Shown here: positions 2-17,155 of the stretch, piece after piece
How positions within the stretch are numbered: position 1 is the stretch's first letter
Layout of the letters: each line of letters starts with the position of its first letter
IMG/VR virus record: IMGVR_UViG_3300043464_001836
Coordinates: 96,002-114,128 of that record
DNA: 18,127 bases
Source of the DNA: a virus
Lineage: Duplodnaviria > Heunggongvirae > Uroviricota > Caudoviricetes
Direction: 5' to 3' (one strand)
Made by a program: the position numbers and the translations under genes
The notes under the pieces: model-generated
Told to the model about the DNA's origin: nothing
Seen by the model: the letters and a program-made list of their open reading frames with translations, nothing else
The model's database searches: none

Positions 2-1183
2 AAACTATCTAATTATATACGCAGCAAACTTAACCCCGCTCAAGCCTTGATAGCTCAAGATGAAGGGAGTTCTATATACCCTGAGCCTTCATATAACTAC
101 GCACAAGCATATGATAACGTACCAGTTGTTCGTAGAGCTGTAGACTTGATCGTTAACGGTGCTGCTAGTTTCAACGTTGATGTTACAGAGAAACTACCTA
201 TCACAGCCGTAGTTAATAATATTCGTAAAACTAAAGTAAATACTCTTTTAAATTACCAACCAAATCTTTATATAGACATACACAAGTTCCGTAGGCTACT
301 ATACACTGACCTAGTTCTAGAAGGTAATGCCTTTATTTACTGGGATGGTGCTTACTTATATGTTCTTCCCGCAGCCAACGTAGAGATTTTAACAGACCAA
401 CTGACTTACGTCAAGGGTTATAAATATGGTGGTACCACTACTTTCCTACCTAGCGAGATTATTCACATCTGTGATAACTCAGCTACATCAATCTATAGTG
501 GAACTAGTAGGTTAAAGTCTACAGCTGATAGTATTAATACTCGCGCTAGTATGCTATCCTTCCAGGCAAACTTCTTCAAGAATGGGGCTGTGCCAGGACT
601 AGTACTTGTTTCTGAGAATGTACTCGGAGATAAAGTTAAGGCTCGCATGGTGGAGAGCTGGTCACGTGAGTATAGCCCAAATAAAGGTGCCAAACGGCCT
701 ATTATTCTAGATGGCGGTTTGAAGCTTGATAAGGTTTCAGACGTAAACTTCCGCGAATTGGACTTCGAGGCCTCTATTACTCTCAAGGAGAAACAAATTC
801 TAGTATCTCTAGGTGTACCAGAGATACTATTAAACTCGGGTAATAATGCCAACCTCCAACCTAACCTACGTTTATTCTATCTAGAGACTGTACTACCCCT
901 AGTAACTATGGTTAATAGCGCACTAGAACGTTTTCTGGGCTATAATCTTGCCCATGAAGCAAGTAGAGTCTCAGCACTACAACCAGAGATGCGAGATTCA
1001 GCCAGCTATTACTCTACTCTAGTAAATGGAGGAGTTCTAGCTCCCAACGAGGCTAGAACGGAACTACGCTACCCACCAAAGCCAGACGCAGATGAACTGC
1101 GAGTACCTGCAAATATAGCAGGCTCAGCGGCAGGCGCAGCACCGGGCGAGGGAGCCCCCAAGAAAGATGAACAAAACCCTTAA
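2..1183 (+). CDS. Portal protein, T5 pb7-like (HK97-family portal); 5' end lies outside the window
   Basis: The frame is open from base 2 (KLSNYIRSKLNPAQALIAQD), upstream of the TTG at 47. KLNPAQ matches the recalled T5 portal N-terminus KLNPGQ. Further T5-portal-like motifs: FRRLLYTDLVLEGNAFIYWDG, IILDGG, GVPEILLNSGNNANLQPNLRLFY, LVNGGVLAPNEAR, RVPANIAGSA. Confidence 0.95.
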   Translation, partial: KLSNYIRSKLNPAQALIAQDEGSSIYPEPSYNYAQAYDNVPVVRRAVDLIVNGAASFNVDVTEKLPITAVVNNIRKTKVNTLLNYQPNLYIDIHKFRRLLYTDLVLEGNAFIYWDGAYLYVLPAANVEILTDQLTYVKGYKYGGTTTFLPSEIIHICDNSATSIYSGTSRLKSTADSINTRASMLSFQANFFKNGAVPGLVLVSENVLGDKVKARMVESWSREYSPNKGAKRPIILDGGLKLDKVSDVNFRELDFEASITLKEKQILVSLGVPEILLNSGNNANLQPNLRLFYLETVLPLVTMVNSALERFLGYNLAHEASRVSALQPEMRDSASYYSTLVNGGVLAPNEARTELRYPPKPDADELRVPANIAGSAAGAAPGEGAPKKDEQNP

Positions 1184-3038
1184 ACTAGTAGCAAACTTCG
1201 AGATTAAAGCCCTAGAGGATAATAACGATGATAATGTACAGGACCGAGAGGAACTATACATTACAGGATACGCCAACACTACTGATAAGGATAGAGTTGG
1301 TGATGTAGTACTAGCGGAAGCTTGGCAGAAAGGCGGCCTAGATAACTTTAGAGCTAACCCTATTATTCTAGCTTACCACGATCACAGCAAACCAATCGGC
1401 CTAGCTACAGAACTTTCAGTAGACCCCAAAGGGTTGAAGATCACAGCTCGTATTTCTAAAGCATCTGAAGAAATCTACCAACTAATCAAAGAAGGTATCC
1501 TAAAAGCATTTAGTGTTTCCTTCTACACGAAGGATGCGGACTACGACAGTACTTCTAGCATCTTTGTAATTAAAGACCTAGAGTTGCTAGAAATTAGTGT
1601 GGTCTCTGTGCCTGCTAATCAGTATTCAATCTTCTCCGTTGCTAAGTCTTTTGAAGACCAAGAGCAATACTTAGAATTTAAAAAGCAGTTTACCCCAATC
1701 CTCACAAATACGGAAGCTCAAGATACAGATCTTGCTAATTCATCTAGTGAGAAAGAAAATGAAGGAATCATTACTATGGATAAAGAACAAATTGACAAAC
1801 TAGTTGCTGAAGCTACTAACGCTGCTGCTGTAGCTGCTGTTGCTAAGGGAATCGAACTTGGCAAATCCGGCGCCGAGCGCCTACTTGCCGATGCTGAAAA
1901 GCGCCTACAAGACGTCGAAGCTACTAACCTAAAAGCTGTTGACGACCTACGTGCTGCTCTAGCAGAAAAAGCCACTGAAATCGAAGCTCTACAAAAGAGC
2001 AAGATTCAGTTCCAAGAAAAAGCCGCGGGTGACCAAGTTACCTATCAAGAGAAAGAGTCTGCCGTTCTACTAGCTAAGGCTGTTAACAAGGGCCTAACCG
2101 CTACTGGTCTATATCAGGGCCTAGTACAGAAGTACGGTGCTCATATCCCTAGTGCTACTTGGGAACTAGAAGTATCTACTAACATGCAGGACGAAATTCG
2201 TCGCGCTCTTATTCTTGACCCGATCTTTAATAAGAACATTAGCATGAATAACCCTGTTATGCGTCTACCTGTAAACCCTGAAGCTGGTTATGCCAACTGG
2301 GTACTAGAAAGTGGCTACAAAGCAGCTACATCTAGTGGTACCGCACAAGACCACGTGCTTAAGGAAATCAACCTAACAGCATATAAGCTAGCTACCAAAG
2401 AGTTCCTTGGTACGGAAGAAGAGGATGATAGTATTGTTCCCCTTCTACCAATCATCCGTGATGCTATTGTTAGACGTACTGCTAAAGCATGGGACAAAGC
2501 GCTTCTACGTGGCGCAGGTGCTGGATCTGACCCTATCAAGGGCATTATCACAACTGCTAATACCACACTATACACAACTGCTGGTGGTGAACAGGTTCAG
2601 CTAGCCGTAGCTTCTAAAGCCACTGTTGCTCACCTACTATCCATGCGTCGTGCCCTAGGTACCCGTGGTCTTAATCCTAGCGAGCTAGTATACATCGTTT
2701 CTAACGAAGTTTACTACGACCTACTAGAAGACACTAACTTCCAAACTATGGATAAGGTTGGCACTCGTGCTACCCTACTAAGCGGTCAGATTGGCTCTAT
2801 TGCTAATACTCCGGTTATCCTAAGTGGTGAGTTCGAAGCTAAGGCTGCTACGAAATTCGGGGCTGTCGTAGTTAATCAAAATAATTTCCTAGTTGGTCGC
2901 TATAAGGGTCTACGTGTTGAGTCTGATTACTCCGTTGAGAATCAGCAACGTCTAATCGTAGCTTCCCAACGTGTTGGCTTCCAACAAATCTCCAGTGTTG
3001 AAGGTTCTGGAGTCTGTAGCTTCAAGTGGATTGCTTAA
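1167..3038 (+). CDS. Prohead protease (HK97/T5 pb11 type) fused to major capsid protein (T5 pb8-like), 623 aa
   Basis: aa ~30-175 carry protease motifs: ITGYANT..KDRVGDVV, NPIILAYHDH (His), LKAFSVSF (Ser), KDLELLEISVVSVPANQ. aa 204-623 give a coiled-coil scaffold (delta) domain, then an HK97-fold capsid with T5 pb8-like AYKLATKEFLGTEEEDDSIVPLLPIIR and YYDLLED. There is no stop codon between the two parts. Confidence 0.95.
   Translation: MNKTLKLVANFEIKALEDNNDDNVQDREELYITGYANTTDKDRVGDVVLAEAWQKGGLDNFRANPIILAYHDHSKPIGLATELSVDPKGLKITARISKASEEIYQLIKEGILKAFSVSFYTKDADYDSTSSIFVIKDLELLEISVVSVPANQYSIFSVAKSFEDQEQYLEFKKQFTPILTNTEAQDTDLANSSSEKENEGIITMDKEQIDKLVAEATNAAAVAAVAKGIELGKSGAERLLADAEKRLQDVEATNLKAVDDLRAALAEKATEIEALQKSKIQFQEKAAGDQVTYQEKESAVLLAKAVNKGLTATGLYQGLVQKYGAHIPSATWELEVSTNMQDEIRRALILDPIFNKNISMNNPVMRLPVNPEAGYANWVLESGYKAATSSGTAQDHVLKEINLTAYKLATKEFLGTEEEDDSIVPLLPIIRDAIVRRTAKAWDKALLRGAGAGSDPIKGIITTANTTLYTTAGGEQVQLAVASKATVAHLLSMRRALGTRGLNPSELVYIVSNEVYYDLLEDTNFQTMDKVGTRATLLSGQIGSIANTPVILSGEFEAKAATKFGAVVVNQNNFLVGRYKGLRVESDYSVENQQRLIVASQRVGFQQISSVEGSGVCSFKWIA
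1776..3038 (+). CDS. Major capsid precursor translated from a probable internal in-frame start (M204, 420 aa)
   Basis: AAGGA at 1762-1766 lies 9 nt before an in-frame ATG at 1776 (MDKEQIDKLVAE). This is where a T5-type capsid gene would begin, just after a low-complexity linker. Confidence 0.7.
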   Translation: MDKEQIDKLVAEATNAAAVAAVAKGIELGKSGAERLLADAEKRLQDVEATNLKAVDDLRAALAEKATEIEALQKSKIQFQEKAAGDQVTYQEKESAVLLAKAVNKGLTATGLYQGLVQKYGAHIPSATWELEVSTNMQDEIRRALILDPIFNKNISMNNPVMRLPVNPEAGYANWVLESGYKAATSSGTAQDHVLKEINLTAYKLATKEFLGTEEEDDSIVPLLPIIRDAIVRRTAKAWDKALLRGAGAGSDPIKGIITTANTTLYTTAGGEQVQLAVASKATVAHLLSMRRALGTRGLNPSELVYIVSNEVYYDLLEDTNFQTMDKVGTRATLLSGQIGSIANTPVILSGEFEAKAATKFGAVVVNQNNFLVGRYKGLRVESDYSVENQQRLIVASQRVGFQQISSVEGSGVCSFKWIA

Positions 3039-4041: not shown

Positions 4042-4074
4042 ATGCTAAATATTAGAGCTAACCTATGGCTTTAA
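4042..4074 (+). CDS. 10-codon upstream mini-ORF MLNIRANLWL overlapping the start of the 1105-aa gene
   Basis: GGAG (4032-4035) lies 6 nt before ATG 4042. TAA at 4072-4074 is out of frame with ATG 4065. Not in the ORF track. Confidence 0.4.
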   Translation: MLNIRANLWL

Positions 4075-7000
4075 CCATAACAAGAACAATACTTTCTGGT
4101 GCGATTTACAAGATCGTCCTGCTGGGGTTTGTCGAAAGTGGTACTGCCAGCTCAGGAACACTAACTACACTAACGGACACTAGTAAGTCACGCACTGTTA
4201 ACGCAGATATCGGTAGATGTATTTTTATACATACTGGAACCGGTACAGGAGCTGTCGGATGGGTAAGTTCCAATACTGCTACAGTTTGGACGGTGGAGGC
4301 GTTTTACCTACCTGATTTCCAGGGTGGTGTTACAAAAATCACGCCGGACAACACCAGCCAATACGGGCTGTTGGGCACAGATGCCGATATTTATGCAGCA
4401 TCAGTTGCAGGTGGTTGGGGTGCCGTAACTCTAACCGGCAATACCTATTACTTCTCAGATTGCCTATATATTGGTGACGGCACAAATAAAACAGGAATTC
4501 AGTTTACTAACAATGCGCAGTTTGGCATCTATGGAACTCCGAGAGCCTTTGCCAGCGCAGCTAACACTGCTGTTGTTCTTGGGCGCAGAACCAAAACAAA
4601 GAGCACGAGAAACGGTGTAATACTGCTTGAGTATTGCACAAGGGCCGATTCATCGGCTGGTGGATACGGAGCTAACTTCGGTGCACAGTGGGACGACCTT
4701 GCAGGCTATGTGTACGTTTATGGTTCAACGCTGAAAAGCAAGTTGCACAATGTACCTGTCCCCAATACCCAATCAGCGGCATTTTACCTTCCATATAAGT
4801 TCGATTTTCTACAATCAAACGTTGACTCTGACGGTTTTGCATTGTTCAGTACAATACTTGGCTCTTTCTCTCGCTGCAACATCACGAACGGCCAGGGTCT
4901 TCCGCTACCTTTGTGGTTGTATTCGCCAAACGTTACTTTTGATGATGTAACTATTTACGCATCTTATCAAGGGTTACGGATTGCATATAACTATGATGGC
5001 GTACTGAAAAACTGTAATTTAATTGATAACACCTACCCTGTTCATCTTTACGGGGCAGTTAATGATTCATCAAAGTTCAGCGGCCTGCTTCGTCTGATAA
5101 ACACACAAGCTGACCTAACCGCGATTTTGGTAGACACCTATGTTACCGGGTCTATCCAGAAGGAATATGAGTGGGGGCTAAACGCTAATAATGGTACCAA
5201 CCCAATAGCGGGTGTCAAGGTATATGCTACAAATGCTAGTGGTACAGAAGTTGTAAATACTATTACTGATGCATACGGCAACATACCAACACAAAGTATC
5301 ATCGTTCAGAAACGTACAGGGTACGCTGGGTCACTAGTAAATCATGCACCACACACCTACGGCTTCAGAAAATATGGATACTTTTCTGATGGCGCCACAA
5401 AAACCCTGACTTCAAAAACTGATGATGGTGTAAAACTACGGGTTAATCCTTACGTTGTTGCTAGTGAAGCTACCGCAGCCGCAATGACTGGTATTACTGT
5501 TACTAGTAGTGCAACAAGCCTAAGTTCCTCACATAGTCTTCAAGACATTTATGACCGTGGGCAGTACCTATCACAGCAAAGTTTCATTACCGAACCATGG
5601 ACTACTTCTGATGGTATTACATTCGTTCAGTCTACTGGCCGGGTATTCACGCCAGGTTCTTATATAGACTGGGGAACTAGTAGACTAGTTGGTGGTACTG
5701 TTACTTTCGGTACACCTGGCCCGTTCTCCCCGCGCATTGGCACCATCACTGTGCGATTTACAGCCGCGGGCACATACGCTATGACGGATGCTGACTTTGG
5801 TGGGATTGTGACTTTTACTAATACTTCTGGGGGTGCAGTCACAGTTGAACTACCTGCTGGAATATCTTATGTAAACACCGGGCCAAGTGTCACCATTGTA
5901 GAACCCCAAACTTACCAAAGCGTCACCCTTACGGGTGGCATCACGGGTTCCAGGGTACAACTATATGACTTAACATCTAGTACAGAGGTGTACAATGCTA
6001 TACCTAGTAGCTGGCCATTTACTTGGACAGATAGTGTACCTTATATAGCAGATAGACAGATTAGACTTCGTGTAATGAGTCAACCTGGTACAACAGCAAC
6101 ACTACTTATAGACCAGGTTATTGGAACTGCTACAGGCACCTCTCCGGCTATATCATTTTTAGTTGGTCAGGTAGTGGATACTGTGTACAATACAAATGCT
6201 ATTGTTGGTTCAACTGTTACAGGCGTTGAAATTATTGATGGCACGTTACGAGTACAGGTATCTACTGGTACTATTACTTGGCAAGAGCTATATGCTTATG
6301 AAACGTACTGGCTATTCACCGAAGAAGGTATTAGAGACGAAGGTAGATTCGCCTTCGCACCTGACCCTTCTAACTATAAATGGTATGACTTTAAGTTAAA
6401 GAATACTATTAGCCCTTCTGCCCCTCTAGTAGTTTCAGGTGGATACGGAGTAGACGGAGATACTGGCACTTCTATAGCAATGATAGATACTACTGGCGGA
6501 ACTATTATTATGGCTGTAGACCATGTAGTAAATAATATAGTTACTGTTGGTGGCTCTAACATTATTACAGGGGATATCGCTGAAGTAACATCTAAGGTTC
6601 AAGCAGGTCTTACTGCCCAGGGTTACACTGTTACTAAGGCGGGCTACTTAGATGCCACTATTAGTTCCAGAGCTACTATAAGTGGTATTGAAACCTCTGC
6701 TGTACTAGCAAAAGAAGCTACAGTAGCCACAATTCCTACTAGTACTTTACTAAGTACAGATATAAGGCTTAATAATCTAGATACTACTATTAGTTCCAGA
6801 GCCACTGTAAGTGGTATCGAAAGTTCTACTGTACTGGCTAAAGAAGCTACAGTAGCTTCAATTCCTACTAGTACGCTATTAAGTACCGATGCAAGGCTTA
6901 ATAATCTAGATACTACTATTAGTTCTAGAGCTACTGTAAGTGGTATCGAAAGTTCTACTGTACTAGCTAAAGAAGCTACAGTAGCTTCAATTCCTACAGC

Positions 7001-7382
7001 TACGCTACTCAGTAATGACTCTAGACTTAATAACCTAGATGCTACTATTAGTTCCAGAGCTACTGTAAGCGGTATTGAGAGCTCTACTGTACTAGCAAAA
7101 GAAACCACAGTAGCTGCAATTCCTACTACTACACTGCTAAGTAGCGACTCTAGACTTAATAACCTAGATGCTAATATTAGTTCTATATTAGCTACAGATA
7201 TTGAAAGTGGTTTAACCTTGGGGGATATGTCCAAGATTATACTAGCAGCAGTAGTAGGCAAGACTGCTGGAGTAGGTTCTAGTACAGAAACTTACTTAGC
7301 CCAAGATGGTACTACTCAGCGTATAGTAGTAGGTTTTGATTCTGATAACAATAGAACTTCGGTAACTTTAGATGCGCAGTAA
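4065..7382 (+). CDS. Large virion-appendage (fibre/spike-like) protein, 1105 aa, multi-domain
   Basis: T/S/G-rich and beta-rich. It has an N-terminal SGTASSGT..TLTDTSKS...I.TGTG.G phage module, a beta-helix-like segment (SRCNITNG...FDDVTIY...VLKNCNLIDN), a transthyretin/carboxypeptidase-regulatory-like segment (PIAGVKVYATNASGTEVVNTITDAYG...FRKYGY), four 43-aa repeats and a 65-aa C-terminal module (ESGLTLGDMSKIILAAVVGK...RIVVGFDSDNNRTSVTLD) that I recognise from phage structural proteins. The function is inferred. Confidence 0.75.
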   Translation: MALTITRTILSGAIYKIVLLGFVESGTASSGTLTTLTDTSKSRTVNADIGRCIFIHTGTGTGAVGWVSSNTATVWTVEAFYLPDFQGGVTKITPDNTSQYGLLGTDADIYAASVAGGWGAVTLTGNTYYFSDCLYIGDGTNKTGIQFTNNAQFGIYGTPRAFASAANTAVVLGRRTKTKSTRNGVILLEYCTRADSSAGGYGANFGAQWDDLAGYVYVYGSTLKSKLHNVPVPNTQSAAFYLPYKFDFLQSNVDSDGFALFSTILGSFSRCNITNGQGLPLPLWLYSPNVTFDDVTIYASYQGLRIAYNYDGVLKNCNLIDNTYPVHLYGAVNDSSKFSGLLRLINTQADLTAILVDTYVTGSIQKEYEWGLNANNGTNPIAGVKVYATNASGTEVVNTITDAYGNIPTQSIIVQKRTGYAGSLVNHAPHTYGFRKYGYFSDGATKTLTSKTDDGVKLRVNPYVVASEATAAAMTGITVTSSATSLSSSHSLQDIYDRGQYLSQQSFITEPWTTSDGITFVQSTGRVFTPGSYIDWGTSRLVGGTVTFGTPGPFSPRIGTITVRFTAAGTYAMTDADFGGIVTFTNTSGGAVTVELPAGISYVNTGPSVTIVEPQTYQSVTLTGGITGSRVQLYDLTSSTEVYNAIPSSWPFTWTDSVPYIADRQIRLRVMSQPGTTATLLIDQVIGTATGTSPAISFLVGQVVDTVYNTNAIVGSTVTGVEIIDGTLRVQVSTGTITWQELYAYETYWLFTEEGIRDEGRFAFAPDPSNYKWYDFKLKNTISPSAPLVVSGGYGVDGDTGTSIAMIDTTGGTIIMAVDHVVNNIVTVGGSNIITGDIAEVTSKVQAGLTAQGYTVTKAGYLDATISSRATISGIETSAVLAKEATVATIPTSTLLSTDIRLNNLDTTISSRATVSGIESSTVLAKEATVASIPTSTLLSTDARLNNLDTTISSRATVSGIESSTVLAKEATVASIPTATLLSNDSRLNNLDATISSRATVSGIESSTVLAKETTVAAIPTTTLLSSDSRLNNLDANISSILATDIESGLTLGDMSKIILAAVVGKTAGVGSSTETYLAQDGTTQRIVVGFDSDNNRTSVTLDAQ
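6648..7184 (+). repeat. In-frame tandem repeat, 129 nt / 43 aa, 4 full copies plus a partial fifth
   Basis: Units start at 6648, 6777, 6906, 7035 and 7164 (partial). Consensus is LD(A/T)TISSRATVSGIESSTVLAKEATVASIPTSTLLSxDxRLNN. Confidence 0.97.
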
Positions 7383-9795: not shown

Positions 9796-11139
9796 ATGGC
9801 AGTAAATTTAAGTAGAAATACTAAAGTATTCATCAGCACTAATACTACTGATACGCTTGGAGACTTTACTCCTTCCAATACCTTTGAAATTCAGGTTATG
9901 GATGGGTATACCTTCAATCAGAATACTGAACAACAAACAATTACACTATCTGAAGCAGGAACTGCTCCTGTTCGTGGTGAGCGTTCTTTTAATAGTAAAC
10001 TAAACCCCGTAGAATGGAGTCTAAGCACCTATATTAGACCTTACCTAGCTTCTGGCGTTGTAACTGCTCCTGAGAAGTTCCTTTGGAACGCTCTAATGGG
10101 TTCCGCAGCTATTGATGCTACTGGTGTTGCGTTAAGTGCGGGTCAGCGTAATAGCGCTACGGAAGCTCAAGTAACTACTAGTGCGCAGCTATTTGCAGAT
10201 GCAGCAGACGCTGTAGGTCAGATGATTACTATTCGGGGTATCGCTGGCAATACTGCTTATAATGCAGAATTTAAAGTTACTAGCGTTACAGGTACTACTA
10301 CTCAAGTTGTGAAATTTGAGACTGATACAGACCTAACCTCTACTGCACCTACCTTTGCTGGTACACCTAAAGCCTTCAAAGGTCAGTGGCGAGAAGATGC
10401 CAGTAAGGCTATTACTAGTACTATTGGTTCTAATAGAAACTCTCTACAGTCATTTACTCTACTATTCAAGGTAGATAACACGATGTATAAAGTAGCTAGC
10501 TGTGCTGTAAACCAAGCTGATATCCAATTTGATATTACAGGTATTGCTATGATTGCGTGGTCTGGTTTTGGTACTACTCTAAGTACCCCTAGCCTTACAT
10601 TCGTTGCTGGTACTCATTATACAGCTTTCCCTTCAGCAGCAGATAACTATATCACAAACAAACTAAGTACTACTACGCTAGTATCTAATATTAGTGGTAC
10701 AGCAGGTACAACTTATACAGTACCTATTACTGGGGGTAACCTAACAATTAGTAATAATATTGAGTACCTAACTCCAGAGAATATGGGCGTAGTAAACAAC
10801 GCTATTGGTTACTTTACAGGTAACCGCTCTATTACTGGTGCTCTAAATGCTTACCTCAAAACGGGCAGCAACGAGTCTTCGACTCTACTTGCCGATATCG
10901 TAGCAGGTCTAGCAACCACCTCTGAAACCAAGTTCAAACTACAAATCGAAATTGGCGGTGCAGCTAGCGCAACTCGTGTTGAATGCCTAATGAATGGCTG
11001 TCAGCTACAAGTACCTACTGTAGATATTCAGGACGTTGTATCAACTGTTATCAACTTCACTGCTCAGGGCTACAATGGCACTGATTATGAAATTAGTAAG
11101 ACAAATAACCTAGTAGTTTCTTACTACGGGGTAGCGTAA
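9796..11139 (+). CDS. Major tail tube protein (T5 pb6-like), 447 aa
   Basis: LSRNTKVFIST, EAGTAPVRGERSFNSKLNPVEWSLSTYIRPY, YITNKL, VPITGGNLTISNNIEYLTP and IGYFTG.RSITGALNAYL match pb6. SD GAGGAG at 9784-9789. Confidence 0.95.
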   Translation: MAVNLSRNTKVFISTNTTDTLGDFTPSNTFEIQVMDGYTFNQNTEQQTITLSEAGTAPVRGERSFNSKLNPVEWSLSTYIRPYLASGVVTAPEKFLWNALMGSAAIDATGVALSAGQRNSATEAQVTTSAQLFADAADAVGQMITIRGIAGNTAYNAEFKVTSVTGTTTQVVKFETDTDLTSTAPTFAGTPKAFKGQWREDASKAITSTIGSNRNSLQSFTLLFKVDNTMYKVASCAVNQADIQFDITGIAMIAWSGFGTTLSTPSLTFVAGTHYTAFPSAADNYITNKLSTTTLVSNISGTAGTTYTVPITGGNLTISNNIEYLTPENMGVVNNAIGYFTGNRSITGALNAYLKTGSNESSTLLADIVAGLATTSETKFKLQIEIGGAASATRVECLMNGCQLQVPTVDIQDVVSTVINFTAQGYNGTDYEISKTNNLVVSYYGVA

Positions 11140-11145
11140 TAAAAG

Positions 11146-11168
11146 AAGGAGGGCTTAGCGCCCTCCTT
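11146..11168 (+). terminator. Stem-loop after the tail tube gene, probably a leaky terminator or mRNA stabiliser
   Basis: AAGGAGGGC-TTAGC-GCCCTCCTT (9 bp) followed by only a short U-run. There is an A-run upstream. Confidence 0.65.
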
Positions 11169-11187
11169 AACTGGAGAAACCTAATAA

Positions 11188-11613
11188 ATGTCAGTAGTTT
11201 CACTACAATCCCTATTAACCTCCTCTAAAACAGTAGAGGTAGACTACAGTTCTGAGAAGCCAGGGTTCAAGGTTAAAGTGGCTTTCCTTTCTAGAGAAGA
11301 ACTACTAAAGCTACGTAAGAGCTGCGTTACCACGAAGTTTGATAAGAGAACTCGCCAGCCAGTAGAAGAATTGAATGAAGACCTATTTACTAAGGCGTAT
11401 GTATCAGCAGTAGTTAAAGGTTGGTCAGGACTAAAACTAAAATACCTAGAAGATATGTGCCTAGTAGACCTAGATGCACATAAAGACCTAGATGTTGAGC
11501 TAGAGTTTAATGAAGACAACGCTCTTTACCTTATGAAGAATTCTGTTGAATTCGATGGCTTTATTACTGATATTACTAGTGATTTAGCTAACTTTCGTAA
11601 GTTCACAGTTTGA
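11188..11613 (+). CDS. Tail assembly chaperone, N part (lambda gpG analogue; T5-like)
   Basis: It lies between the tube and tape measure genes. FKVKVAFLSREELLKLRKSC, VKGWSGL and the C-terminal DLANF are typical of this chaperone class. SD GGAG upstream. Confidence 0.85.
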   Translation: MSVVSLQSLLTSSKTVEVDYSSEKPGFKVKVAFLSREELLKLRKSCVTTKFDKRTRQPVEELNEDLFTKAYVSAVVKGWSGLKLKYLEDMCLVDLDAHKDLDVELEFNEDNALYLMKNSVEFDGFITDITSDLANFRKFTV

Positions 11614-11956
11614 ACAGCTAGCAGAACAAATTAAGAATTTTAGTCAAAATAGGTACGCTAACATGAGTAGAGATACCTATTTTGATATGTGTGAACAGCT
11701 TGGAAACGACCCAGTAGAGTCCGAAATACCTATAGAGCTAGAGGACTTACCTATAGAAGCACAGGAAGCGTGGAAAGTATACTCTTATCTACCAGATAGA
11801 GTAGATAGTTTCAACGGTGTGTATCACGGCAAGTCTATAGAAAACGTAGCTAATTTAATGAACCTATTTGGAATAGATGACAAGCAAACTTACTTATTAA
11901 TAATAACACTATTTGATAAGTACGAAACAGAAGAAATAAAGAGAAAGAAGAGGTAA
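11588..11956 (+). CDS. Tail assembly chaperone, C part (gpT analogue); frame open from 11588, first ATG at 11663
   Basis: The frame is open for 25 codons before the ATG (LTFVSSQFEQLAEQIKNFSQNRYAN) and overlaps the end of the upstream ORF in the +1 frame. YFDMCEQLG..P.E.EIP.ELEDLP.E.Q is T5-chaperone-like. Confidence 0.8.
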   Translation, partial: LTFVSSQFEQLAEQIKNFSQNRYANMSRDTYFDMCEQLGNDPVESEIPIELEDLPIEAQEAWKVYSYLPDRVDSFNGVYHGKSIENVANLMNLFGIDDKQTYLLIITLFDKYETEEIKRKKR

Positions 11957-11959
11957 CCT

Positions 11960-14900
11960 ATGGCAGAAGCTAGAAATATTAAAGTTGGCGTAACAGCAGA
12001 TGGGCTAGCCGCTCTTCTTCGTGAGGCAACGGAACTAAATAGAGAACTAGATCGTGCCGAACGGCCTCGTAAAGTAAGGGCAGCTTCGGCTGCCCTTGAC
12101 GCGTCTACTGCTGGACTAAATAGAGGAACTGCTGGAGCCGGTAGAACCAACCAAACTAGAGATTTCGCTAGGCAAGCTCAAGGTCTAGGTGGATTAGTAC
12201 ACTTGTATGCTACCTTCGCAGCTAATATCTATACTGTAACAGCTGCTTTCAATGCTCTATCAGCTGCTATGGATTTCACTAATATGGAGAAGGCAGCAGA
12301 TATCCTATCAGTACGCCTAGGTACTGGTATTCGTAGTTTAGCTAAAGATATGAAGGCTCTAACAGATGGAGCTATCTCTATGTCTGATGCGCTATCTAGT
12401 GCTTCACTAGGTGCTACTGCGGGTCTGACAACTAAACAAATTAGAGAGCTTACTACTGTTGCCAAAGGTGCAAGTATTGCTCTAGGTAGAGACATGACGG
12501 ATGCACTAAATCGTGTATTCCGAGGCACTATCAAGATCGAACCAGAACTACTAGATGAACTAGGCGTTATGGTTAAAGTAGACGATGCTAATAAGTCTTA
12601 CGCTAGAACTCTGAATAAGACTATATCTTCACTTACCGACTACGAAAGACGCCAAGCATTCGTAAACGCAGTAACTGAGCAAGGTATTAAGAAGTATCAA
12701 GAACTGGCAGATAGCGCTGCCAACCCATTCTCTAAACTACTATCTAGTCTTAAAGACTTAGGTACAGAAACTTTACAGGTTGTTAACTCTACCTTTGGAC
12801 TAGGAGCCTTTGTTAATTTACTCTCACAAAGTCCTACAGCACTGATACTTGGTGTTATGGCATTAACTAGCCTACTTATAAAAACAGCTATACCTGCAGT
12901 TGGAGAAATCTCCGCCAGATGGCGAGAAATGACTCAAATTGCTCTCGCTGCTAACCAGGCTAGCATTGCTAATATAAATAATATTCAACAAGCAGCTAAT
13001 GCGCAAAAAGAAGTAGCAAAACAAGCTACCGTAGCACTACTAACTTCTAGAGATGAACTTGATAAAGACTCTAAGAAGAGAATGGTTGGTGGCAAGGATA
13101 TTCATAGTAAAGTAACAGATTATATCTGGGACAAAGATAAAGACCCAGCAATTTTAGAGAATAAGAAAGCGGAGGCTATAGCCGCTATAGAGAAGGCCAA
13201 GAAAGATATAAATAAAAAGATAGGTAAGCTTGAAGATATTACTAAAGATACTCGCTATGCTGCTGCACAGGAAACAGAGCTAAAGAAGCTGGAGAGTTTA
13301 AGAGCTGACGCAGCAAGATTAGATTCCCTACAAGAAAATCTTAATAGACATAGTACTTCTGCAGCTACTGCCGCACAAGCTCAAAGAGCTGTACACGAAC
13401 ACGATGAAGTATTAGCAAGACTTAGAAATGAAGGTACCGCACTAGAGCACGTAACTAAGAAGCGTCAAGCGCTATCCGCGGCGTACAATCAGACCGACTT
13501 ACTAGGCTTTACTGCTGGTATGAAAGAAATGAACTCTCAGGTTAATGCTCTAAACCTTGGGGGCATGGAATCTGGTCTACTAAAAGTACGTGGTGCACTA
13601 GGTGTAGTTACTGTAGGTGTATCAAAACTATTAGGTACTTTCTCTATTTGGGCCGCTGGTATAGCTATAGCATTGCCTCTTCTTAAGGGGCTAACAGACT
13701 GGCTGGGCTTAACTACTGACCATGCTAGTAAGCTTAATGAGGCACTCACCTCTGTAAGTGATAACTTAAAGCTGCACAATGAAATACAAGAGAAGATTAA
13801 GTTAAGTGCTAGTTTAGCTGATACTTATCAGCTACAGGCTGCTGCTGCTAACGCTTATGCAGATTCTTTACAAAAAGTTGAATTGGCTAGCAAAGAACTT
13901 AACGCATATAAAAACGCTGGGGTACTAACCAGAGTAGCAGAGCAGGCCACTAACCTAGTAACTTTTGGTACTGGTGGGGCTGTCGGGTCAGACGCAAATA
14001 AGGGACTAATAGAAGAGTATGATAGACTAATGGCTAGTGATGCAGACTTCGCAAGAAGAAATGCAGGTAGATTTCAACGTAAGTCTGGGGCCTTTAATGA
14101 GTCTACGGAGTATCTTACTGCGCAAGGTGCTTTCGATACAGCTAACCTAGGAGGTTGGGGTACCGGCCAAGAAAAGGTTATTGAAAGTATACTTAAGGCT
14201 CTAAAAGACCCCGAACTTGAGAAATCTGCAAGAGCGTACAATGAAGCCTCTAACGGTATGATAGCTAACTTCAAGGAGTTAGATACTATTACTAATGAGT
14301 ATTCTATTAGTATTACTAACCAGTCTAAAGACCTAAAAGCTTTAAACGCTTTTAACTCTTCTACTGTTAACGTATTCAAGCAGTTGGCTGACCCTCGTGG
14401 TGGTGTAGCAAACGTAAGTCAGTACTTAAAAGGTATTACTAGTCAGTTTCAAGAAATGTCTAGCGTATCTCTGCCTAGTACCTTAGTCAAACTAAGTACA
14501 GGATTACAAAGAGTAGAAGACGATGCAAATCGGATCTACCAAATACAGAAAGACTTAGCTGCAGGTGATGTAGATAAACTAAAGCAAGCCGAAGCACAAA
14601 GAACTAGAAATATTGAAGTAGGCTCTCAGGCAGAGATAACAGCAGCTGGTGGTATTGGTGCTGTACAGCGCGAATTTATTGACTATAATCTTAAAGCTAC
14701 TGAAGCCCTAGCTAAACTAGCTACTGCTGCTACTGACTCTGCGATAATTCAAGCTAAAGTAGCTAGAAACTTAAAAACTTCTCAACTACTAACTAGCTTC
14801 TCTGGTTCTAATACTGCTCTAATATATCGTAGAGAGCAGGAAGCAGAAAGAGCAAGAGTTAACGCTGAGAATGCTGCGCAGCGTACTAATATTAAAGAGC

Positions 14901-17155
14901 TAAAAGCTAGTAAGAGTGGTACTGAAGGAATCTTTAATACTTTAGTAGAACAAATTACTACTAGACTTGGCCTTGGTAGTGGTATGAACGTAGCAATAGA
15001 CAAGGCTACTACACCTAGCGGAAAAATTCAGGAACTAGCTAAAAAGGATATAACACCAGCAGAGATGGGTAACCTATTAAATACTGCTGGACAGCTACAG
15101 AACCTTAACGCTGCTTTAAGTATAGCAACTAGCAAAATCACTCTAAATAACTTAACTCTGGATACTAAGGCTCAGAAAGCAATCAATGATATAGTAAAAA
15201 CAGCGTCTGACTTAGCTTCTCTAGCTATTACAAGAGAGCAGAATAAACTAGATGCTAGCTTAGTATCTTTAGAGCATACACTTGAAAGAGACTCTTCTCT
15301 TAACTCAGAAGACCTAGACGCTAGAAATAGATATAACATAGCACTAGAACAAGCTCAGGCTAATGAACTTATAGCAAGGGCAAAGTTTATTGAGGCAGAT
15401 ACTAAAGCTGCGGAGGTACCTAAGCAGTTTCCTAAAACGTGGACTGAGGACCAAAGGGTTGCCGCTAGAGACTTAATAGACCTACGCACAGCCGCAGAAA
15501 TAGCACAAGAAAAAGCCATATCTGATAGAAACTTAGTAGATGTTACTGAAAAAGCTAGGGTAGAAGCTACTAGACTAGTTAATATGCAAAATGCTATTAA
15601 CCTGCTAGAAGAGGAAAACACACTACTAAGTGACTATTCTAGCCTAGTACTTTCCGTAACACAGAACTATGGACTACTAAATAGCACTACTAATACCTCT
15701 ATTAGTAACCTAGTATCACAAGTAGCTCTTGAAGATAAGCTTTATAGTCAGCAAGTAGATAGATTAAAAGAAGCTCTACTAAGTAATAATACTGTTAGTG
15801 GACAGATCGAGTATACGTCTAAACTAGCTAAGCTAGAATCAGATGCTCTAGAAAGTAAAATTAAGAAGGTTAAACAGCTTAGTACACTATATGCTCAACA
15901 GAATAGCCTAGTACTTAAAACTGCAGAACAGAATGGTATTAAAGAAACATTTACACCTGAAAACTTAGCAGTTGCTGGTAGTGTAATGGCAGATAGAATT
16001 TCCGAATCCATTGGAAAGTCCGAAGCCTGGCTACATCAACTCTCTACTGGTATTATAGATTCTGTAGTAACTATAGTCGATAACTTTACTACTATGATCC
16101 AAAAGCTCAGTGAAGAGCGTTTCCACTGGAGAACCTTCATAGAGATGGTTAGAAATACTTTCAGTGATATGGTTAGAAGTATTGCTTCAGATATGATTAA
16201 GAACGCAATGCTAGGCTTTATAAAGCAAGGACTAGAAAAGATTAAGCCAGGCTTGGGCAAGTCTAGTGAAGAAAAAGCTGCGGATGTTCTAAATTTAAGT
16301 CTTAAAACTAACGCTACTAGCTTAGATACCTTAAATGTTACTATCACTAACCTAACTACTCTGCTAAGTACACAAAAAAGCTTACCAAATCTAGCTGGTG
16401 CATTTACTAAACCACTACCGGGTGTAGATGCAGTTATTACTACTACAGACCCTAATGGTAACGTTATACCTGAATCTACTCCTAGTATAACACCACAACC
16501 AGAAGTAGGTGGACGCTTACTAGCTCAAGCTGAGGCTACTAAGGTTACAGACTTAGGAAAAGCGGCAACTAATATAAAACTAGCAGCAACCACAGACAGT
16601 GCATCCACTAAAACTTTTGCCCAGACTGTAACTGACATGGGAATTTCAACAAATGTATTTAGTGGTGCAGTAGGTGGCCTAGTTGGTGCTTTACTTACTG
16701 GTGGCTCTATGAAGGGTGCTTTAGCTGGTATAGCTACCGGTGTGGCAACTAATATGATCACTAGTGGAGCTATGAAAGCCTTTGGATTCGCAAATGGTGG
16801 TATTATGTCTTCCAGAGGTGCTGTACCGCTTCATAAGTATGCTACTGGGGGTATTGCAAGCTCACCTCAACTAGCACTATTCGGTGAAGGTAGACGAAAT
16901 GAGGCTTTCGTACCACTACCTGATAATAGAAGCATACCTGTAACTCTAAACGGTTCAACAGGCGGCGGTATGGTAGTTGGTGATACTAATGTCTATGTCA
17001 CAATTAGTAATAGTGGCGAAGGTTCTTCTAGTAAAATCGATGTTAAGCAGGCTAAAGAGTTTAGTAGTTCTATGACCACTGCAATTAAAAACGTAGTTCA
17101 AGAAGAGCTTATTAAACAGTCTAAGCCTAATGGTATGTTATATGCAAGGAGGTAA
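11960..17155 (+). CDS. Tape measure protein, 1731 aa
   Basis: Long Ala/Leu/Lys/Glu helical protein after the chaperones. T5 pb2-like N-terminus (QGLGGLVHLYATFAAN..., ALGRDMTDALNRVFRG..K.EPELLDELG), hydrophobic segments (ALILGVMALTSLLI; IWAAGIAIALPLL) and a lambdoid C-terminus (FANGG...YATGG...PQLALFGEG..NEAFVPLPD.RSIPV). Confidence 0.96.
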   Translation: MAEARNIKVGVTADGLAALLREATELNRELDRAERPRKVRAASAALDASTAGLNRGTAGAGRTNQTRDFARQAQGLGGLVHLYATFAANIYTVTAAFNALSAAMDFTNMEKAADILSVRLGTGIRSLAKDMKALTDGAISMSDALSSASLGATAGLTTKQIRELTTVAKGASIALGRDMTDALNRVFRGTIKIEPELLDELGVMVKVDDANKSYARTLNKTISSLTDYERRQAFVNAVTEQGIKKYQELADSAANPFSKLLSSLKDLGTETLQVVNSTFGLGAFVNLLSQSPTALILGVMALTSLLIKTAIPAVGEISARWREMTQIALAANQASIANINNIQQAANAQKEVAKQATVALLTSRDELDKDSKKRMVGGKDIHSKVTDYIWDKDKDPAILENKKAEAIAAIEKAKKDINKKIGKLEDITKDTRYAAAQETELKKLESLRADAARLDSLQENLNRHSTSAATAAQAQRAVHEHDEVLARLRNEGTALEHVTKKRQALSAAYNQTDLLGFTAGMKEMNSQVNALNLGGMESGLLKVRGALGVVTVGVSKLLGTFSIWAAGIAIALPLLKGLTDWLGLTTDHASKLNEALTSVSDNLKLHNEIQEKIKLSASLADTYQLQAAAANAYADSLQKVELASKELNAYKNAGVLTRVAEQATNLVTFGTGGAVGSDANKGLIEEYDRLMASDADFARRNAGRFQRKSGAFNESTEYLTAQGAFDTANLGGWGTGQEKVIESILKALKDPELEKSARAYNEASNGMIANFKELDTITNEYSISITNQSKDLKALNAFNSSTVNVFKQLADPRGGVANVSQYLKGITSQFQEMSSVSLPSTLVKLSTGLQRVEDDANRIYQIQKDLAAGDVDKLKQAEAQRTRNIEVGSQAEITAAGGIGAVQREFIDYNLKATEALAKLATAATDSAIIQAKVARNLKTSQLLTSFSGSNTALIYRREQEAERARVNAENAAQRTNIKELKASKSGTEGIFNTLVEQITTRLGLGSGMNVAIDKATTPSGKIQELAKKDITPAEMGNLLNTAGQLQNLNAALSIATSKITLNNLTLDTKAQKAINDIVKTASDLASLAITREQNKLDASLVSLEHTLERDSSLNSEDLDARNRYNIALEQAQANELIARAKFIEADTKAAEVPKQFPKTWTEDQRVAARDLIDLRTAAEIAQEKAISDRNLVDVTEKARVEATRLVNMQNAINLLEEENTLLSDYSSLVLSVTQNYGLLNSTTNTSISNLVSQVALEDKLYSQQVDRLKEALLSNNTVSGQIEYTSKLAKLESDALESKIKKVKQLSTLYAQQNSLVLKTAEQNGIKETFTPENLAVAGSVMADRISESIGKSEAWLHQLSTGIIDSVVTIVDNFTTMIQKLSEERFHWRTFIEMVRNTFSDMVRSIASDMIKNAMLGFIKQGLEKIKPGLGKSSEEKAADVLNLSLKTNATSLDTLNVTITNLTTLLSTQKSLPNLAGAFTKPLPGVDAVITTTDPNGNVIPESTPSITPQPEVGGRLLAQAEATKVTDLGKAATNIKLAATTDSASTKTFAQTVTDMGISTNVFSGAVGGLVGALLTGGSMKGALAGIATGVATNMITSGAMKAFGFANGGIMSSRGAVPLHKYATGGIASSPQLALFGEGRRNEAFVPLPDNRSIPVTLNGSTGGGMVVGDTNVYVTISNSGEGSSSKIDVKQAKEFSSSMTTAIKNVVQEELIKQSKPNGMLYARR

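Follow-up and report, generated by a model that had tools for sequence, protein, structure and literature searches.

The tail assembly chaperone pair of an uncultivated T5-like phage is, in our reading of the sequence comparisons, very likely joined by +1 slippage at UUU_CGU, which would give a long form of 255 aa. The direction of this programmed frameshift has very probably flipped in evolution, from -1 to +1, on the same two codons. What is new here is a lineage that lies outside the T5 clade and whose nearest relatives harbor -1 heptamers on these codons. This amounts to a natural experiment, in which close relatives would slip backward on a heptamer and the lineage studied here forward on UUU-CGU, at the same Asn-Phe codons. 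It opens three questions to direct testing, namely, whether UUU_CGN is enough by itself on bacterial ribosomes, what makes CGN necessary, and in what way a gene can withstand a reversal of shift direction.

The chaperone pair and its reading frames

The window, by which we mean the whole stretch of DNA that was analyzed (18,127 nucleotides), is the final 18 kb of one 114,128-bp contig (40% GC, 14 tRNA genes). It carries a T5-like tail module encoding a p143-like tail completion protein, a tail terminator, a major tail protein, two small ORFs, and the tape measure protein. The two small ORFs, the chaperone pair, are flanked by the genes for the major tail protein and the tape measure protein, as in the lambda-type G/GT arrangement. 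The features of this region are as follows.

9796 to 11139, + strand: major tail (tube) protein gene, upstream neighbor (phrog_3575 major tail protein, E 3e-65)
11188 to 11613, + strand: ORF1, G-like tail assembly chaperone of 141 aa, standard decoding (phrog_313, E 2e-15; homologous to T5.143)
11585 to 11587, + strand: +1-frame TAG, the 5' limit for a productive shift (read from the sequence)
11590 to 11598, + strand: proposed shift site AAC-TTT-CGT (TTT-CGN in 37/37 +1 loci and 0/95 -1 loci)
11597 to 11662, + strand: 22-codon linker in the +1 frame, without start codon, from the shift site to a conserved Met (coding selection)
11663 to 11956, + strand: ORF2, T-like domain, 97 codons from the Met plus stop, +1 frame relative to ORF1 (phrog_3914, E 1.4e-12)
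11960 to 17155, + strand: tape measure protein gene (1,731 aa), downstream neighbor (phrog_3779 and phrog_1292 tail length tape measure protein)

ORF1 ends (positions 11581 to 11613) with the codons GAT TTA GCT AAC TTT CGT AAG TTC ACA GTT TGA, in which TTT occupies 11593 to 11595, CGT 11596 to 11598, and the TGA stop 11611 to 11613. The +1 frame contains a TAG at 11585 to 11587 and is thereafter open from 11588 to a TAA at 11954 to 11956. The two frames overlap by 26 nt (11588 to 11613). An earlier note on this DNA had reported these terminal codons, the position of the TTT, and the opening of the +1 frame at 11588, and its coordinates all match the sequence. It had also described the -1 frame as closed by TAA at 11598 and TAG at 11619, which we found to be correct, with a further TAA at 11589. 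No X_XXY_YYZ heptamer is present in register at the window junction, as the note had stated. When TTTC is decoded in one step, a product of 255 aa results, so that the length and the junction of the fusion proposed in the note were both reproduced; its interpretation as the outcome of +1 slippage gains support from the comparison with relatives, and we regard it as highly probable.

The family assignment of ORF1 is complemented by a match to phrog_389 (XkdN-like; E 0.004), and for ORF2 both its position and a collinear alignment indicate homology to T5.142. Neither the two ORFs nor the fusion gave a match in local copies of Pfam (a copy without PF27119) and NCBIfam; PF27119 (Phage_YdaY) is precomputed on the ORF1 homologues P0002 to P0121. 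A sequence profile search of the PDB returned only a chance match to thioredoxin (E 0.47). We compared an AF2 model of ORF1 (pLDDT 78.6) with 48,161 PDB chains. The top match was the XkdN-type chaperone YqbN (Z 4.9, rmsd 4.6) and the second was the tail assembly chaperone of HK97 (Z 3.9, rmsd 5.6), each with 96 residues aligned and a weak score; Foldseek gave an E of 0.3. These weak matches of a predicted fold agree with the PHROG matches. Aligning the fusion to the 258-position phrog_313 profile was uninformative, as the match gained just 12 residues and 0.6 bits.

Slippery motifs, ORF2 frame, and coding of the linker

We assembled 132 homologous loci from IMG/VR and public assemblies and analyzed each junction by script. 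The loci represent 36 distinct junction contexts, 24 of the -1 and 12 of the +1 type, in a sample without individually drawn Klebsiella, Proteus, Pectobacterium, and Providencia T5-like phages. ORF2 lies in the -1 frame in 95/132 loci and in the +1 frame in 37/132, the latter including the window, T5, Sugarland, and Vibrio phages. All 132 loci share (Asp/Glu)-Leu-x-(Asn/Thr)-Phe as the end of the conserved ORF1 part. A canonical, register-correct heptamer (A_AAT_TTT, A_AAT_TTC, or G_GGA_AAC) is present in 95/95 -1 loci (24/24 contexts) and in 0/37 +1 loci (0/12 contexts). TTT-CGN shows the opposite distribution: all 37 +1 loci (12/12 contexts) harbor it, the codon following TTT being CGT, CGC, or CGA, and none of the 95 -1 loci (0/24 contexts) does. 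This co-occurrence of TTT-CGN with the +1 frame is far beyond chance.

The Phe codon is TTT in 12/12 +1 contexts, while the -1 contexts have either TTT (16 contexts) or TTC (8 contexts). Re-pairing of tRNA-Phe from UUU to UUC, the step postulated in the earlier note, requires TTT, and the invariant TTT of the +1 contexts fits such a step.

In one -1 subgroup (L018, L020, L021, L026, L097, L100, L115, and others), Gly-Asn-Phe is encoded by GGA AAC TTY, which is not slippery on Asn-Phe. The G_GGA_AAC heptamer of such loci lies one codon upstream, and its first G comes from the preceding Leu codon, invariably CTG or TTG. The chaperone family thus appears, from its junction sequences, to use two different -1 heptamers in addition to the +1 site. 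A distant relative (L063, 33% identity; around positions 1207 to 1230) has A_AAA_AAC directly before the ORF1 TAA, with ORF2 in the -1 frame, and this would represent a third -1 site type in the wider family. We also noticed that a +1-frame stop ending exactly 5 nt before the TTT is present in 11/12 +1 contexts and 6/24 -1 contexts (Fisher p 2e-4 by contexts, phylogeny not corrected). It may be a terminator of ribosomes that shift too early, or a by-product of TTA/CTA Leu codons.

For the analysis of the region between the shift site and the Met, the product of each locus was built with its own shift direction before aligning. The -1 and +1 products align gap-free, usually as Phe, 22 residues, and Met, the 22 linker residues showing a conserved amphipathic pattern that is followed by a conserved Met-Thr/Ser-Lys/Arg. 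Coding of the linker was evaluated from synonymous and nonsynonymous single-nucleotide codon changes between pairs of loci. With pairs that are not phylogenetically independent, the 35 distinct linkers gave 261/112 (synonymous/nonsynonymous) in the ORF2 frame versus 132/317 and 71/319 in the other frames, the linkers of the +1 T5 group 746/79 versus 32/813 and 13/802, and those of the +1 subclade of the window 16/30 versus 3/42 and 4/41. Stops are absent from the ORF2 frame of the 35 distinct linkers and number 79 and 87 in the other frames. Between the linkers of the window and its -1 sister L005 there are 6 synonymous codon changes, one of them a serine switch between AGT and TCC.

These data have to be weighed against the alternative that no frameshift takes place and that ORF2, as a gene of its own, is translated from ATG 11663, a start that the earlier note had raised as a caveat. 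An AGGT (11651 to 11654) is indeed located 8 nt before this ATG, a Met 22 codons past the shift site is conserved in most lineages, though usually without a Shine-Dalgarno sequence, and the sampled T5-like GenBank records all annotate two separate CDSs and contain no joined CDS. In addition, T5 and Sugarland are said to be without a predicted frameshift signal (PMC6256483). However, the 22 codons preceding the Met are open in 35/35 distinct linkers and are coding in the ORF2 frame only. The window linker contains no in-frame start codon, and neither do most of the other linkers, a minority having an in-frame ATG or TTG. An SD-like motif precedes the Met in few loci only, and the AGGT of the window lies inside conserved Gln-Asn-Arg-Tyr/His codons, where L137 has AGAC and L139 AGGC. 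Moreover, the Met itself is absent from the L007 group, L121 to L134, pVp-1, and Sugarland, and an independent gene would leave unexplained that the slippery motifs track the ORF2 frame without exception. Since the linker is coding, mostly start-less, and not followed by a Met in several lineages, the region upstream of ATG 11663 is, as judged from these patterns, translated in the +1 frame and entered only from ORF1. We therefore consider an independent gene improbable. The caveat is weakened accordingly, although the AGGT is where the note had placed it, and some independent initiation at ATG 11663 besides the fusion is possible.

The ORFs could also be joined by an event other than slippage on UUU_C, namely, a prfB-like, stop-stimulated +1 shift at GTT-TGA (11608 to 11613), a -2 shift, or transcriptional slippage. 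There is a superficial likeness between GTT TGA and the CUU UGA of prfB, and the overlap from 11588 to 11613 permits any position inside it. The overlap is much more restrictive in Vibrio phage 70E37.1, where it measures only 11 nt, that is, AAC TTT CGT plus two bases of the preceding codon, and therefore pins the shift to AAC TTT CGT in this phage. Furthermore, the last sense codon of ORF1 is not a conserved one: it is ACT or GCT in the window subclade, GCG in T5, and in 70E37.1 the CGT itself. On UUU, tRNA-Val would be unable to pair at the first position, and the other codons in the window overlap cannot re-pair at +1 either. A -2 move from UUU lands on ACU in the window, with no pairing, and the run of T is 3 nt long, too short for polymerase slippage. 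Finally, only TTT-C-G is common to all +1 loci. Each of these other events, and all of them together, appear very unlikely to us.

Regarding the preferred site, UUU_CGU, an in-frame TTT-CGN occurs once in the 5,807 codons of the window, at the shift site, and at about 7 other places in the 114-kb genome (crude ORF set), indicating that this dicodon cannot by itself account for frequent or exclusive shifting. The C of CGN is accounted for by the re-pairing, while the G could serve the zero-frame Arg codon or the +1-frame codon.

Relatives and the direction of the shift

A megablast search of the window region against phage genomes gave no match, and the 689 phage records found by tblastn, for the most part Demerecviridae, all had an identity under 60%. 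By tblastn, the identity is 31% to T5 and 37 to 38% to Vibrio phages (39 to 40% over the aligned part). In T5, pVp-1, and 70E37.1, the start-to-start offsets are 1 mod 3, which places ORF2 in the +1 frame, and C-TTT-CGN stands in the zero frame 1 to 5 codons before the ORF1 stop. In T5, 61 nt separate the T5.143 stop from the T5.142 ATG, and ORF2 itself contains a second in-frame TTTC. The +1 relation and TTT-CGN were also found in 28 T5-type IMG/VR loci, L057/L059, L137/L139, and Sugarland, which has ACT TTT CGT nine codons before the ORF1 stop and an Ile where T5 has the Met. The earlier note had proposed conservation of TTTCG and of the +1 register as a check, and both are kept in T5-type phages, Sugarland, pVp-1, Vibrio phage 70E37.1, L057/L059, and the window subclade.

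The pairs T5.143/T5.142, Sugarland 177/176, and pVp-1 0150/0151 share with the window 31 to 39% identity, the +1 relation, and the zero-frame TTT-CGN, and the gene order around the chaperones is common to T5-type phages and the window. T5-type genomes are annotated with two genes, and the window differs from them in that it lies outside the T5 clade, among -1 lineages. It also lacks several T5 features, namely, the Thr-Phe, the 26-codon linker, the p140 gene before the chaperones, and the endonuclease gene after them. Specifically, no p140-like gene lies between the tube and chaperone genes (11140 to 11187), where T5 and Sugarland both carry one, and no endonuclease gene separates the chaperones from the tape measure gene (11957 to 11959), where T5 has T5.141.

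In a maximum-likelihood tree of 55 sequences, at least 2 changes of shift direction are needed. The +1 state is found in the T5/pVp-1/70E37.1 clade, in L057/L059, and in the window lineage, which is nested among -1 lineages with strong support. A focused tree places the window/L004, L137, and L139 (all +1, with TTT-CGY) in a local group with the -1 trio L005/L065/L141, and this window group lies inside the successive -1 outgroups L143 (99/96) and L006 (100/97). Because the window lineage is nested among -1 lineages, its TTT-CGY would have been acquired independently. On these phylogenies, the parsimonious reading is that the ancestor was of the -1 type and that the +1 shift of the window lineage is derived, TTT-CGN having been reached independently.

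The ORF1 of the sister loci is 72 to 74% (L005, L141, and L143) or 66 to 70% (L006 and L065) identical to that of the window. All five have the Asn-Phe shift codons in common with it, and their linker and T domain are collinear with those of the window. In the sisters, A_AAT_TTT is followed by CAG, ACG, or TCG and ORF2 is in the -1 frame, whereas the window has lost the first A of the heptamer (GCT AAC), has CGT as the next codon, and is 2 nt longer in this stretch. Compared with L005, this extra length is counted over the interval running from the Asn to the Arg codon that precedes the Met. The string TTTC..AAGTTCA occurs in both the window and L005, and the next three residues past the site are not the same in the two, as expected if they are read in different frames.

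That an indel from assembly or sequencing has given a true -1 gene its +1 appearance, as the -1 sisters and their difference of 2 nt might suggest, has a negligible probability, for the same frame and site recur in the IMG/VR contig L004 (99% identity), the ENA assembly L137, the Logan assemblies L139 and L140, and many cultured T5-type genomes, and the canonical heptamer is destroyed as well in the window-type +1 loci. We found neither fused ORFs nor annotated slippage products among the best 120 database hits, and the ORF1/ORF2 split is therefore universal among close relatives.

Proposed mechanism and known systems

ORF1 and ORF2 would correspond to the G-like and T-like parts of a lambda-type chaperone pair. 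Most ribosomes would read to the ORF1 stop and release the 141-aa short form, while a minority would pause with peptidyl-tRNA-Phe on UUU (11593 to 11595) and CGU in the A site. The tRNA-Phe would then re-pair one base forward on UUC (11594 to 11596), decoding would resume at GUA (11597), and translation in the +1 frame through the 22-codon linker and the T domain would yield the 255-aa long form. We infer that the event is ribosomal and occurs exactly on UUU_C, and likewise its efficiency and the roles of both products. By analogy with lambda gpG/gpGT, the shared G part may coat the tape measure protein and the T part may recruit the tube protein. The window lineage itself presumably goes back to -1 ancestors in which these Asn-Phe codons carried A_AAT_TTT.

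G-T frameshifting is described as widely conserved in long-tailed phages (Levin 1993 and Xu 2004, summarized in PMC5009743). As in the window, lambda gpG/gpGT are encoded by two small ORFs between the tube and tape measure genes, the second ORF being out of frame; the conserved N-terminal stretch of this second ORF is start-less, the first stop follows the shift site by a few codons, the short and long forms share the N-terminal domain, and a low shift rate is enough. However, lambda shifts -1 on a tandem slippery heptamer, while the window would shift +1 on UUU_CGU with a single P-site tRNA and no heptamer, and no sequence similarity of the window ORF1 to lambda G was detected.

The earlier note had named UUU-CGN as the +1 site of influenza PA-X and of amalgaviruses, and this likeness holds. 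PA-X, whose cassette is UCC_UUU_CGU, the amalgaviruses, and the bacterial UUU_Ynn site (Yersinia YopN-TyeA) follow the same tetranucleotide logic, UUU to UUC, with no stop needed (PMC5009743). An Arg CGN codon in the A site is shared by the window and the UUU_CGN sites of PA-X and amalgaviruses. The systems differ in that PA-X and the amalgavirus sites belong to eukaryotic RNA viruses and YopN-TyeA is a bacterial secretion regulator, whereas the window belongs to a phage. Furthermore, the E-site codon is AAC or ACT in the +1 phages and UCC in PA-X, and CGU is rare in the hosts of PA-X but not in the phage studied here. The G-T pair of the haloarchaeal myovirus HSTV-2, for which a +1 shift is reported as very likely (PMC5009743), resembles that of the window as a tail chaperone pair with a proposed +1 shift; unlike the window phage, HSTV-2 is a myovirus with an archaeal host. 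prfB differs in that it needs an A-site stop and an upstream SD-like stimulator, while the A-site codon of the window is CGT and no such motif was seen.

Our literature searches found no report of a +1 chaperone frameshift in T5-like phages. We lean, with some reserve, towards the broader view that UUU_CGN is a self-sufficient +1 signal on bacterial ribosomes, which arose at least twice in phage tail chaperones, is interchangeable with -1 heptamers, and is the same as in PA-X and amalgaviruses. If this is true, the signal would be a universal property of the ribosome and tRNA-Phe, and T5 and all Demerecviridae would make an overlooked GT-type fusion protein. To our knowledge, utilized programmed +1 frameshifts are rare in bacteria and their viruses and hard to spot, and annotators therefore concluded that T5-type phages are without the near-universal chaperone frameshift. 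TTT-CGN would provide annotation pipelines with a simple rule for the missing long chaperone in hundreds of T5-like genomes. Many T5-like phages are used in phage therapy and biocontrol work.

We also looked for stimulators of the shift. No downstream stimulatory RNA structure was apparent in ten folded loci, none of which clearly beat shuffled sequences and among which nothing was shared (z of about 0 in the window and -1.9 in T5), and no SD-like stimulator was seen in the 45 nt upstream of the shift site. A G:GT ratio of 30:1 is sufficient in lambda (PMC5009743), so a weak, stimulator-free site would suffice here, in agreement with the absence of a conserved structure.

The idea of a hungry A-site codon was not well supported. 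CGT is moderately used (8.9 per 1,000 codons, compared to 15.2 for AGA) and is not rare in the phage genome, which makes this argument weak. The cluster of 14 tRNA genes (G000:C1, 45569 to 58467) includes a tRNA-Arg(UCU) for the preferred AGA, no CGN reader, and no tRNA-Phe. Genome-wide, TTT is followed by a pyrimidine in 130/613 cases (21%) and TTC in 190/415 cases (46%; p 1.5e-16). The low value for TTT is consistent with an avoidance of shift-prone sites, without being specific to it.

Two further differences from T5 were found in the head region of the window. Between the capsid and head-completion genes (4065 to 7382), the window encodes a protein of 1,105 aa that weakly matches a right-handed beta-helix, with nothing comparable there in T5, and the prohead protease (Peptidase_S78) and the major capsid protein, which are separate genes in T5, are fused in one 623-codon ORF (1167 to 3038).
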